This document shows positions 102-872 of a stretch of 7,722 nt of DNA, piece after piece. A program made the translations under genes and the position numbers. Numbering within the stretch: position 1 is the first letter of the stretch; every line of letters begins with the position of its first letter. This stretch comes from a virus (lineage: Monodnaviria > Loebvirae > Hofneiviricota > Faserviricetes > Tubulavirales > Inoviridae), in the IMG/VR virus record IMGVR_UViG_2541047896_000002; one strand, 5' to 3'. A model generated the notes under the pieces. It saw nothing but the letters and a program-made list of their open reading frames with translations. It was not told the origin of the DNA and made no database searches.

Positions 102-368
102 TCATTCCTCAGGGTTTTTTCTTCCAATTCCCTGTTTTTCATGGCTTTCTTTTATCATGTTAAAGTAGTGGTTTTCTGCCGCATCTACAATTTTTCCCAT
201 GCTGCGCCTTTCTGGGCCATCACGTCCGTCCAGACCTTCACCTTCTGGCCTCTCCATTTTTACAAAATTGTAGATTGTTTTTACGAGGAATCTTGCTAAT
301 TCTGCTCTTGCTACGGGGCTGTCATTCTCTGTTTCATTAAGTACTTGTATTATCTGGTCTTTGTTCAT
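102..368 (-). CDS. Hypothetical 88-aa protein of unknown function in the divergent regulatory module
   Basis: Complete ORF on the purine-rich strand with charged, non-repetitive composition. The overlapping plus-strand ORF 87..299 is Phe-rich and looks like an antisense artefact. A weak AGGT lies upstream of the ATG and a stem-loop plus T-run downstream. No motif I recognise. Confidence 0.5.
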   Translation of the reverse strand: MNKDQIIQVLNETENDSPVARAELARFLVKTIYNFVKMERPEGEGLDGRDGPERRSMGKIVDAAENHYFNMIKESHEKQGIGRKNPEE

Positions 369-560
369 TACCTATACCTTTTAGAGTGTGTCATTTGATC
401 TTTGCATAATGGCGTATTTTTGTTTAATCGTTTGACGTCCAGCTTATCTTAATTCCGATTTCGCAAGCTCTGCTGTTGTTCGTTTTTTCGCCGCGAAGCG
501 GTTCGGGGTTCTGTGACACCCGAACTTTAGTACGGTTTCCCGTATTTTTTCCCTGCTCGC

Positions 561-749
561 TTATTTTTTTTTGCTTTCTGTCTTCAGGAACTTGCGGTAG
601 TCGTCTTCTGTGATCGTCTCTAACCCTTTGGCGATTATCCATTCGAGCATTTTGGTATCTTTAACTGGAACAGCTAGGGTTGATACCGCTCTAACGGTTT
701 CTTTCTCTATTTTTCTCCATTGAACATCGTTTATGTGCTTTGTAGGCAT
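561..749 (-). CDS. Hypothetical 62-aa small basic protein, candidate transcriptional regulator (positional analogue of a phage repressor)
   Basis: Strong Shine-Dalgarno (GAGGAAAGAG) immediately upstream of the ATG on the minus strand. It is divergent from the rep gene across a 123-bp promoter region and has a Lys-rich C-terminus. Function is inferred from position only. Confidence 0.55.
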   Translation of the reverse strand: MPTKHINDVQWRKIEKETVRAVSTLAVPVKDTKMLEWIIAKGLETITEDDYRKFLKTESKKK

Positions 750-776
750 GCTCTTTCCTCATTCTGCTAGCTTTGC

Positions 777-806
777 ATCATATCTCTAAATTCTTAGAAA
801 TGTTGA
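777..806 (-). promoter_or_regulatory. Candidate sigma70 promoter for the 62-aa minus-strand gene
   Basis: Minus-strand -10 TATGAT (plus 777-782) and a weak -35 TCAACA (plus 801-806) with an 18-bp spacer. It overlaps the plus-strand -35 of the rep promoter. Confidence 0.3.
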
Positions 807-831
807 CACTTAGTTTCTCAGGTCTTATAAA
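803..831 (+). promoter_or_regulatory. Sigma70-type promoter for the replication gene
   Basis: Consensus -35 TTGACA (803-808), 17-bp spacer, -10 TATAAA (826-831), 41 nt upstream of the ATG at 873. Flanked by the inverted repeat TTCTTAGA (791-798) and TCTAAGAA (857-864). Confidence 0.6.
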
Positions 832-872
832 AGCACCATGAAATAATTTCTGAGAATCTAAGAAAGGGCGCT

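Follow-up and report, generated by a model that had tools for sequence, protein, structure and literature searches.

A probable RstR-like immunity module of a new sequence family upstream of the rep operon in a dif-integrating filamentous prophage of Escherichia coli

The gene for a protein of 62 amino acids (positions 561–749, minus strand) and the adjoining intergenic region (750–872) probably provide a dif-integrating filamentous prophage with its regulatory (immunity) module, in which the protein would act as an autoregulated repressor in the manner of RstR while belonging to a new sequence family, and from which the neighbouring 88-aa gene (102–368, minus strand) would stand apart as separately exchanged cargo. 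The window, i.e. the whole stretch of 7,722 nt that was analysed, is a complete Inovirus prophage of E. coli that is integrated at dif, adjoins hipBA and is present as tandem copies. A preliminary description of this DNA had proposed that the two small genes constitute a lysogeny switch of unknown type. The wording remains apt at the level of the protein family, whereas the functional type would be a familiar one, the divergent inovirus repressor acting at the rep promoter.

Both minus-strand ORFs were confirmed in the sequence, the 88-aa ORF matching phrog_37184 and the 62-aa ORF matching phrog_5219 (E 5e-26). Non-translation of the ORFs, named in the preliminary description as a refutation, is opposed by purifying selection on the 62-aa gene (dN/dS 0.10–0.13) and by the PHROG matches and many homologues of each, and both are judged to be genuine genes. 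Rep, a gene II-type rolling-circle initiator (873–1988, plus strand; Pfam G2P_X_C, E 1.5e-24; phrog_702, E 2e-104), is encoded first in the operon that would be regulated. The attP/dif-like region (1–101, plus strand) contains two inverted dif-like sites flanking a GC stem, is predicted to form a forked hairpin in ssDNA (-31 kcal/mol, z -7.8), and shares one recombination block with the 88-aa gene. The spacer between the small genes (369–560, 192 bp) contains origin-like hairpins, of which those at 498–546 resemble the major intergenic region of If1 and probably serve as the minus-strand origin or in packaging; the hairpin at 529–546 resembles a plus-strand terminator. Positions 1–1000 contain no known RNA family or tRNA scoring above threshold. 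The segments 25–91 and 485–540 were considered as the ends of a widespread cassette, a candidate that was rejected, as most of 822 E. coli records carry only the 66–91-bp hairpin.

The promoter of the 62-aa gene (777–806, minus strand), called by a promoter scan, comprises the -10 element TATGAT (782–777) given in the preliminary description and a -35 element TCAACA (806–801) at a distance of 18 nt. The position of this -10 is conserved in an anchored alignment of relatives, the promoter spacer contains the box TTCTTAGAA (791–799), and the Shine-Dalgarno sequence GAGGA (756–760, minus strand), likewise in keeping with the earlier reading, can be read 6 nt ahead of the ATG at 749. The rep-operon promoter (803–831, plus strand) has the -35 element TTGACA (803–808), a 17-nt spacer filled by two boxes, and the -10 element TATAAA (826–831). 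These elements had been correctly located, but to call the promoter consensus was an overstatement, as its -10 lacks the conserved T at position 6, which is also why the scan missed it. TTGACA and the position of the -10 are conserved across about 20 divergent phages. The two promoters do overlap, having 4 bp of their -35 hexamers in common, but they are divergent (back-to-back) and not face-to-face as first described.

The 8-bp inverted repeat TTCTTAGA (791–798) / TCTAAGAA (857–864), put forward as an operator pair, is present and operator-like; as a simple pair of 8-mers it lies within chance, since the region 750–872 (123 bp) yields such a repeat in 16% of its dinucleotide shuffles. The real signal consists of five phased CTNAG cores (793, 809, 817, 850 and 858), whose steps are multiples of 8 bp except for that from 817 to 850 (33 bp). 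At least five cores are found in 0.1% of shuffles of the same region, at least two phased pairs in 0 of 2000, and both exact TTCTNAGAA sites of the whole 7.7-kb window fall within it. The upstream putative operator (785–799) reads TCTAA-ATTC-TTAGA / TTCTTAGAA, with a CTTAG core at 793, and an equivalent box is conserved in relatives. The central putative operator (808–823), between the rep -35 and -10, comprises two 8-bp-phased boxes, ACTTAGTT and TCTCAGGT (cores 809 and 817); no other feature of the anchored alignment is as well conserved (consensus TTGACAtTtAGaaTCTaAGAa). The downstream putative operator (847–865), TTTCTGAGAATCTAAGAAA, contains two phased boxes (cores 850 and 858), is conserved as AATCTAATTTCTTAGAAACTNAGAA in relatives, and would span about +10 to +28 of the predicted rep transcript, just ahead of the rep ribosome-binding site.

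In the inovirus relatives examined, the 62-aa family is always encoded divergently, upstream of the replication operon, beside Rep proteins of the mutually unrelated families G2P (the window and L009–L012), Rep_trans (L004–L007) and REP_ORF2-G2P (L008). The layout TTGACA, two boxes, -10, about 15 nt and then AATCTAATTTCTTAGAAACTNAGAA is conserved in about 20 phages, whose hosts belong to Enterobacterales, Pseudomonas, Aeromonas, Pseudoalteromonas, Pasteurellaceae and Methylobacter. Among the reference genomes, phased CTNAG-N3-CTNAG pairs occur 23 times in 5.8 kb of upstream sequence versus once in 189 kb of background, and box hexamers reach 23.4 per kb upstream versus 1.2 per kb. Among IMG/VR records, 59 of 61 distinct upstream regions contain at least three hexamers (31.4 versus 1.07 per kb), and phased pairs reach 3.57 per kb versus 0.015, the enrichment of phased boxes amounting to 250–750-fold in these two independent locus sets.

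One phage (L058) encodes a Rep of 89% identity, an unrelated small protein in the regulator slot, and a single hexamer, while a mini-element in L002 combines a Rep of only 28% identity with a 62-aa-family regulator and 6 hexamers. An HTH-type prophage has 0 hexamers, and phages of the HTH and L058 types carry other repeats without TCTNAGA boxes. As judged from these genomes, the boxes go with the regulator rather than with Rep. The L058 regulator had been taken by eye, from its N-terminus, for a ribbon-helix-helix (RHH) protein, an assignment supported neither by Pfam nor by hhalign. A neighbouring, related E. coli prophage in L002 encodes an XRE-type HTH protein in the same slot (HTH_3, E 2e-10; PHROG transcriptional repressor families), and a review of YpfPhi places the RstR homologue YPO2273 there (PMC4266046); by analogy, the slot divergent from rep is a repressor slot. 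The arrangement in the window shows the marks of inovirus repressor modules, with a regulator gene that directly neighbours the replication operon in divergent orientation, and with repeats over the rep promoter that change with the regulator. On these sequence comparisons, the rep promoter is very probably regulated by the 62-aa protein, a member of an uncharacterised non-HTH family.

The family to which it belongs is unnamed, has the invariant N-terminus MPTKHI, and comprises about 135 clusters at 50% identity. Sequence and profile searches against Pfam, NCBIfam, PADLOC and the PDB assigned the 62-aa protein to no family, and no consistent match emerged when sets of 22 and 27 members were scanned with Pfam, or from NCBIfam and PADLOC scans. 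The earlier remark that the protein has no recognisable HTH and may represent an uncharacterised family is borne out, as HTH families of Pfam, NCBIfam and PHROGs were absent from it and from 22 family members, while the control, an XRE protein from the same slot in another prophage, was detected; the candidate turn region precedes an acidic helix (E48 D49 D50). A resemblance to consensus ankyrin helices in the PDB profile search extended over 13 residues only, with no significant single stretch, and was discarded as spurious. A few UniProt entries for the family bear the label 'Repressor' with no reference given, and a literature search found no paper characterising it.

The AlphaFold monomer of the 62-aa protein, of moderate confidence (pLDDT 70, pTM 0.32), shows the conserved extreme N-terminus followed by two helices plus a third helix, and the fold searches proposed in the preliminary description, run with this model, returned no meaningful match. 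Comparison by hhalign of a 64-sequence family alignment with a manually compiled 11-member RHH seed gave a probability of 0.3%, and with each single RHH at most 0.2%, while an Arc-type domain used as positive control scored 90%. RHH families often miss one another (0.1% for the control pair of Arc-type and CopG), so that this negative result leaves the fold possible. The operator has the form expected for RHH proteins, with 8-bp-phased TCTNAGA boxes in up to six perfect tandem copies, a form not exclusive to them. The 62-aa protein may adopt an RHH fold.

We infer that the 62-aa protein is a sequence-specific DNA binder recognising TCTNAGA palindromic-core boxes in 8-bp phase, most likely as side-by-side dimers, in the spacer of the strong rep promoter (808–823), the early rep transcript (847–865) and the spacer of its own promoter (785–799). 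Occupancy of the boxes would block RNA polymerase at the rep promoter, which would switch off Rep-dependent rolling-circle replication and virion production and keep the prophage quiet. The same repression would confer immunity to related incoming phages, and box occupancy would also limit synthesis of the 62-aa protein itself. There is no LexA box, and thus no SOS control or induction route is visible.

The 88-aa gene, which encodes a predicted helical hairpin with the conserved tip RPEGEGLDGRDGPERR (pLDDT 87.5), is better seen as an accessory passenger of the slot next to attP, exchanged on its own. Positions 1–497 of the window are 98–100% identical to L009, while positions 561–1988 are only 74–82% identical, and within one and the same phage pair dS is 0.04 for the 88-aa gene versus about 1.0 for the 62-aa gene. 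A close relative (L011) has kept the 62-aa gene and rep and is missing the 88-aa gene, and the 88-aa family is found alone, without its 62-aa partner, on IncF-type and actinobacterial plasmids and on conjugative elements, the plasmids carrying a separate complete TacA/TacT pair alongside. The separate block, the absence from L011 and the plasmid contexts favour an accessory function, which the preliminary description had offered as its second choice, over the two-gene module that was its first. Separate recombination blocks and a 192-bp gap with origin-like hairpins leave such a module unsupported by the sequence. In other genomes the attP-proximal cargo slot carries defence genes such as Shedu.

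The two proteins might still act as a two-component switch, for instance as repressor and anti-repressor (or co-repressor) translated from a single leftward transcript, which we regard as unlikely. The genes are adjacent on the same strand, the pair co-occurs in L009, L010 and L012, and a scan of the spacer (369–560) revealed neither a sigma70-like promoter for the 88-aa gene nor a minus-strand terminator, so that co-transcription is possible; read-through from the 62-aa promoter, and hence a functional link between both proteins, is accordingly conceivable. In addition, the 88-aa domain is joined to an Arc-type DNA-binding domain (E 4e-12) in P0258, a protein from metagenomic data, but this fusion comes from a single 1.2-kb contig. 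Against the switch stand the sharp mosaic boundary between the genes, the independent occurrence of each, and the other genes, or none, found downstream in marine and other relatives of the 62-aa family. The survey of UPPhi prophages by Shapiro and Putonti (2020) points the same way, as h3, which by position and size is probably a 62-aa family gene, is present in 221 of 229 prophages, while h4 and h5 are present in only about 56 (PMC7307601).

The boxes might alternatively be bound by the 62-aa protein as an Xis/AlpA-like or Cro-like activator of rep transcription or replication. This is decidedly improbable, even though the rep -10 (TATAAA) is imperfect and small activators operate in some inoviruses, e.g. 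XisF4 in Pf4 (PMC7379572). The boxes are situated between the -35 and -10 elements and beyond the likely transcription start, as is typical for repression, and XRE-type repressors occupy the same slot in related phages. The perfect TTGACA at 17-bp spacing further implies that the rep promoter should need no activation.

Slightly less probable again is that the boxes are bound by Rep, as origin repeats, or by a host factor, and that the 62-aa protein serves a purpose other than regulation, e.g. superinfection exclusion. The origins of Ff phages do have repeats close to gene II to which the initiator binds, and the 62-aa protein lacks an assignable DNA-binding fold. The same boxes, however, accompany three unrelated Rep families and are missing in phages with 89% and 47% identical Rep but a different regulator, they precede as tandem arrays non-phage genes encoding the same N-terminal domain, and the origin-like hairpins are located elsewhere (498–546). 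The hosts concerned range from Pasteurellaceae to Methylobacter, which speaks against any one host factor. A toxin-antitoxin pair, with a small DNA-binding antitoxin followed by a toxin, is extremely improbable: such pairs are known in inoviruses, and the sizes and order of the two genes are vaguely reminiscent of type II systems, but 192 bp with origin-like hairpins separates the genes, each is found without the other, and PADLOC and Pfam defence, toxin and antitoxin models matched neither protein.

The N-terminal domain of the 62-aa family also heads longer proteins, some of which have P-loop NTPase-like C-termini, and two such fusion genes outside inoviruses are preceded by perfect (TTTCTAAG)x3-6 arrays. 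We tentatively suggest, as a speculation more likely to be wrong than right, that the DNA-binding fold of the MPTKHI domain has so far gone unrecognised, being neither HTH nor RHH. The domain would read a single fixed 8-bp box code (TCTNAGA) throughout Gammaproteobacteria, act as immunity repressor in a large clade of inoviruses, and have been recruited outside phages as the N-terminal targeting domain of P-loop NTPase and other proteins. The unusually clear co-conservation of protein and DNA motif from Enterobacterales to Pasteurellaceae and Methylobacter makes a good case for a new family of small DNA-binding proteins.

Pathogenic E. coli, Salmonella, Citrobacter, Klebsiella and Yersinia commonly carry filamentous prophages at dif, and to our knowledge the silencing of these prophages is essentially unexplained outside CTXphi and Pf4. 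The protein of about 60 residues and its 7-bp box provide a candidate regulator-operator pair for the UPPhi group and its gammaproteobacterial relatives, the -35 TTGACA followed by phased TCTNAGA boxes may serve as a signature for cryptic inovirus control regions, and the attP-proximal slot emerges as a cargo site. L009–L012 combine UPPhi-like structural genes with an 85% identical 62-aa protein, and h3 of UPPhi901 and related prophages is likewise a reverse ORF that adjoins gene II in inoviruses integrated at dif in enterobacteria; its function was not given, the small reverse ORFs were left as 'unknown function', and the promoter region was not analysed (PMC7307601).

Among characterised systems, Pf4r (repressor C) of the Pseudomonas phage Pf4 is also an immunity repressor of a filamentous prophage, controlling superinfection (PMC8402870), but it belongs to another protein family and genome organisation, and Pf4 uses its own integrase plus an excisionase or activator. 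For the 88-aa protein, the anti-repressor RstC of the RS1 satellite and Rop of ColE1 are loose analogies. Two RHH repressors, MetJ with its 8-bp met boxes and omega of pSM19035 with its 7-bp heptads, similarly have short palindromic or repeated boxes side by side over promoters, and the 62-aa protein is likewise small, with a conserved extreme N-terminus ahead of two predicted helices of matching lengths. It resembles them neither in sequence nor in profile, however, lacks the usual alternating hydrophobics at its N-terminus, and has a third helix in the monomer prediction. RstR represses the rep (rstA) operon of CTXphi in Vibrio cholerae. It is an XRE-type HTH protein, while the 62-aa protein has neither HTH nor detectable similarity to it, and the window differs further in its operator of 8-bp-phased TCTNAGA boxes and in having no LexA site. 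The RstR/ig-2 region and the window nevertheless share a small gene divergent from the rep operon, a dif-integrating prophage, operators (putative in the window) overlapping the rep promoter, and, as in the heteroimmunity of CTXphi, a regulator-plus-operator block exchanged between otherwise similar phages.

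The window, 7,722 bp long, spans an entire filamentous prophage (Inovirus). Besides a gene II-type Rep (873-1988, plus strand; Pfam G2P_X_C, E 1.5e-24), its gene products include a single-strand DNA-binding protein, the major coat protein, a large protein resembling pIII, a DUF2523 protein, a Zot-type ATPase for assembly, and a secretin. Three complete E. coli chromosomes contain this prophage at ~99% identity, and in E. coli PEC148 it is found as tandem copies directly after hipBA, where the chromosomal dif site is presumably located. The two copies (L001, positions 9001-19000) differ, with ~93% identity to the window in one (first 3.5 kb) and 99.5% in the other, thus PEC148 carries two related phages integrated in series. 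Positions 1-101 form an attP of the CTXphi type, where two inverted dif-like sites (2-34, GGTGCGCATAA-TGTTTGACTCG-TTATGTTGAAA, and the reverse complement of 64-95) flank a GC-rich stem, and as single-stranded DNA this region folds into a very stable forked hairpin (-31 kcal/mol, z -7.8). It shares this arrangement of dif-like inverted sites and a forked single-stranded hairpin with the known attP(+) of CTXphi. Between 66 and 91 bp of the element recur with >90% identity in roughly 800 complete records of E. coli, among them many plasmids of 100-200 kb.

Two minus-strand ORFs, encoding proteins of 88 aa (102-368) and 62 aa (561-749), are present between attP and rep, and the preliminary description regarded them as a candidate divergent two-gene lysogeny switch. 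That account holds in part, as the 62-aa gene is supported as a regulator associated with operator-like boxes, while the 88-aa gene falls outside the module. Positions 1-497 (attP, the 88-aa gene and the sequence upstream of it) share 98-100% identity with the UPPhi-like prophage L009, whereas 561-1988 share only 74-82%, placing the 88-aa gene in another recombination context; between the same phages, dS is 0.04 in the 88-aa gene versus ~1 in the 62-aa gene. Another UPPhi-like prophage, L011, retains rep and the 62-aa gene but is missing positions 94-497. In a survey of UPPhi, h3 is found in 221/229 prophages, while h4 and h5 each occur in only ~56 (PMC7307601). Members of the 88-aa family occupy several other settings, in none of which a 62-aa partner accompanies them: conjugative plasmids of the IncF type, where RepA and a TacA/TacT pair are nearby; conjugative elements, where they follow a TraG-like gene; and plasmids of actinobacteria, where they are flanked by ParAB and a resolvase. 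A functional partnership of the two proteins would be compatible with the finding of neither a promoter nor a minus-strand terminator between their genes, and with one metagenomic protein (P0258, on a single 1.2-kb contig) in which the 88-aa domain is fused to an Arc-type ribbon-helix-helix (RHH) domain, but is improbable.

Searches found no family, structure or name for the 88-aa protein. It is modelled with confidence (pLDDT 87.5) as a helical hairpin whose tip, RPEGEGLDGRDGPERR, is almost invariant. The codons of this loop are bracketed by the arms of a perfect 12-nt inverted repeat (183-194, ATCTACAATTTT; 264-275, AAAATTGTAGAT), which may reflect a structure in DNA or RNA, or chance through codon usage. 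Besides P0258, variants of the domain (loci L062-L065) include a tandem duplication (P0235) and a 176-aa form whose N-terminal extension has no assigned family (P0286), encoded on plasmids of Acidipropionibacterium with ParAB on one side and a resolvase on the other.

Between the two small genes stand two hairpins (498-546; GGTTCGGGG...CCCGAAC and TACGG...CCGTA), the second of which is followed on the plus strand by a T-run and is terminator-like. This stretch matches a portion of the If1 phage's 'major intergenic region' at ~87% identity, and is probably a minus-strand origin or packaging region. The attP-proximal slot is occupied in other E. coli by a Shedu nuclease or an STM4504-family gene. 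In E. coli MB50 (L057, 9001-10205, adjoining hipA), attP-like and GGTTCGGGG hairpins flank a Shedu nuclease rather than the 88-aa gene, with a hairpin element on either side of the nuclease gene, and in plasmid pMS20657A (L003, 3001-4114) they flank a frameshifted STM4504/CBY_0614 gene; both loci have an ISNCY-family transposase downstream of the cargo. Such a hairpin-flanked locus may be a mobile cargo slot or a remnant element.

The 62-aa protein has no match in Pfam, NCBIfam, PADLOC or PDB sequences, and matches PHROG 5219, which is annotated as 'unknown function'. A profile search against 1.84 billion representatives yields a family of 135 clusters, in which the N-terminus MPTKHI, W11, K30, L35 and G42 are nearly invariant. 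The dN/dS of the gene is 0.10-0.13 against two relatives, which argues that it encodes a real, constrained protein. In every inovirus context examined, the family gene is divergent from the replication operon and precedes it, regardless of the type of Rep present, i.e., G2P in the window and the UPPhi-like prophages L009-L012, Rep_trans in the marine contigs L004-L007 and REP_ORF2-G2P in L008. Related E. coli prophages carry other small regulators at this position: an HTH protein of the XRE type in one case (Pfam HTH_3, E 2e-10; PHROG repressor families), and an unrelated small protein (phrog_2503) in the circular inovirus L058. A review of YpfPhi also puts an RstR homologue, YPO2273, ahead of rep (PMC4266046). 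The position of the 62-aa gene is therefore the repressor slot of these phages.

The 62-aa gene has the Shine-Dalgarno sequence GAGGA, 6 nt upstream of its ATG at 749, and its promoter (TCAACA-18-TATGAT) is called by a promoter scan. The rep promoter, TTGACA-17-TATAAA, is present as described, and is good rather than consensus, as its -10 hexamer is without the conserved final T. The two promoters are not face-to-face, as had been proposed, but divergent and back-to-back, with -35 hexamers partly in common. An 8-bp inverted repeat (791-798/857-864) suggested as an operator pair does exist in the intergenic region (750-872, 123 bp), but is no evidence by itself because a perfect 8-bp repeat appears in 16% of dinucleotide shuffles of this region. 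The real intergenic signal is five phased CTNAG cores (793, 809, 817, 850 and 858), each within a TCTNAGA-like box and spaced by multiples of 8 bp, apart from the 33 bp that separate 817 and 850. Five or more cores are seen in 0.1% of the shuffles and two phased pairs in 0/2000, and both exact matches of TTCTNAGAA in the whole window are intergenic.

Anchored on the -35 hexamer, the upstream regions of the family align nearly base for base across Enterobacterales, Pseudomonas, Aeromonas, Neptuniibacter, Pseudoalteromonas, Kangiella, Pasteurellaceae and Methylobacter, a host range that counts against binding of the boxes by a single host factor. The operator consists of TTGACA, two boxes filling the spacer (consensus tTtAGaaTCTaAGAa), a -10 at fixed distance and, ~15 nt further, AATCTAATTTCTTAGAAACTNAGAA immediately ahead of the first gene of the replication operon; on the opposite side, the regulator's own -10 is likewise conserved. 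Across 34 loci, the majority from reference genomes, the phased pair CTNAG-N3-CTNAG is found 23 times in 5.8 kb upstream versus once in 189 kb of flanking DNA, and box hexamers reach 23.4 versus 1.2 per kb. In an independent set of 61 distinct IMG/VR contigs, hexamer density is 31.4 upstream versus 1.07 per kb, with three or more hexamers in the 170 bp upstream of the gene in 59 contigs and TTGAC followed by CTNAG within 2-14 nt in 56. The boxes track the regulator rather than Rep: L058, with a Rep 89% identical to that of the window and a different regulator, has one hexamer, whereas the 3.67-kb mini-elements of L002, with a Rep only 28% identical and a 62-aa-family regulator, have six, and a prophage of the HTH type has none, with TGTAT-type repeats in their place.

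L058, recorded as a circular E. coli 'plasmid' of 7,439 bp, represents a related inovirus in its replicative form. In its region 5393-5769, the regulator slot holds the phrog_2503 protein and the intergenic DNA has TGCAT/TTGTATAC repeats instead of TCTNAGA boxes; L058 and the window phage are an apparent heteroimmune pair. In E. coli JNE112863 (L002, 1-9300), at least three tandem mini-elements adjoin a full-length prophage with an HTH regulator. Each has a regulator of the 62-aa family, a Rep of 349 aa, ssb, an 87-aa protein, a 57-aa reverse ORF and a 201-aa protein (phrog_323; D5-like regulator/HNH-like matches) without coat, Zot or secretin genes, and they resemble a filamentous-phage satellite of the RS1 kind.

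The MPTKHI domain also heads longer proteins of 170-320 residues, some with P-loop NTPase-like C-termini. Two fusion genes in non-inovirus contexts adjoining a tyrosine recombinase have perfect (TTTCTAAG)x3 and x6 arrays upstream (L050 and L053). Recognition of the box by this domain itself would be the simplest account. The fusions (P0129, P0160, P0171 and others) have C-terminal domains that are P-loop NTPase-like or of other unassigned kinds, and the L053 gene is accompanied by the recombinase and membrane proteins, with no inovirus. The AlphaFold monomer of the 62-aa protein is of moderate confidence (pLDDT 70), in which the first seven residues are unstructured and helices span 8-25, 31-45 and 48-57. 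A conserved N-terminal segment preceding two helices is compatible with RHH, and short palindromic boxes at 8-bp intervals resemble the operators of MetJ and omega, which bind close-packed short palindromic boxes (8-bp met boxes and 7-bp heptads, respectively). Profile comparison of the family with manually entered RHH seeds gives a probability of 0.3%, against 90% for an independent Arc-type domain in the same set-up, though RHH families often miss each other in such comparisons (control 0.1%). Fold searches with the protein returned nothing informative. RHH is a candidate fold, though somewhat less likely than not, and a new architecture bearing an arm at the N-terminus is a little less likely still.

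The 62-aa protein probably represses rep, as boxes within the rep spacer (with its perfect -35 and 17-bp spacing) and at ~+10 to +28 could occlude RNA polymerase or block its escape, while the box between the -35 and -10 of the 62-aa gene's promoter points to negative autoregulation. The two promoters probably compete for polymerase because their -35 hexamers overlap. No LexA box was found. Silencing of Rep would turn off rolling-circle replication and virion production, and would add immunity to homoimmune phages.

The searchable literature holds no description of the family or its operator code, and the sole label is an unreferenced 'Repressor' on a few UniProt entries. This kind of finding is unsurprising, yet the regulator-operator pair is clean, widely conserved and easily testable, and the prophage group is clinically common. 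A known regulatory logic seems to be executed by an uncharacterised small family of putative DNA-binding proteins with a strikingly conserved operator. In CTXphi, the repressor RstR silences rep and confers immunity, and the rstR/ig-2 region has the same functional arrangement as that found here in an enterobacterial inovirus.
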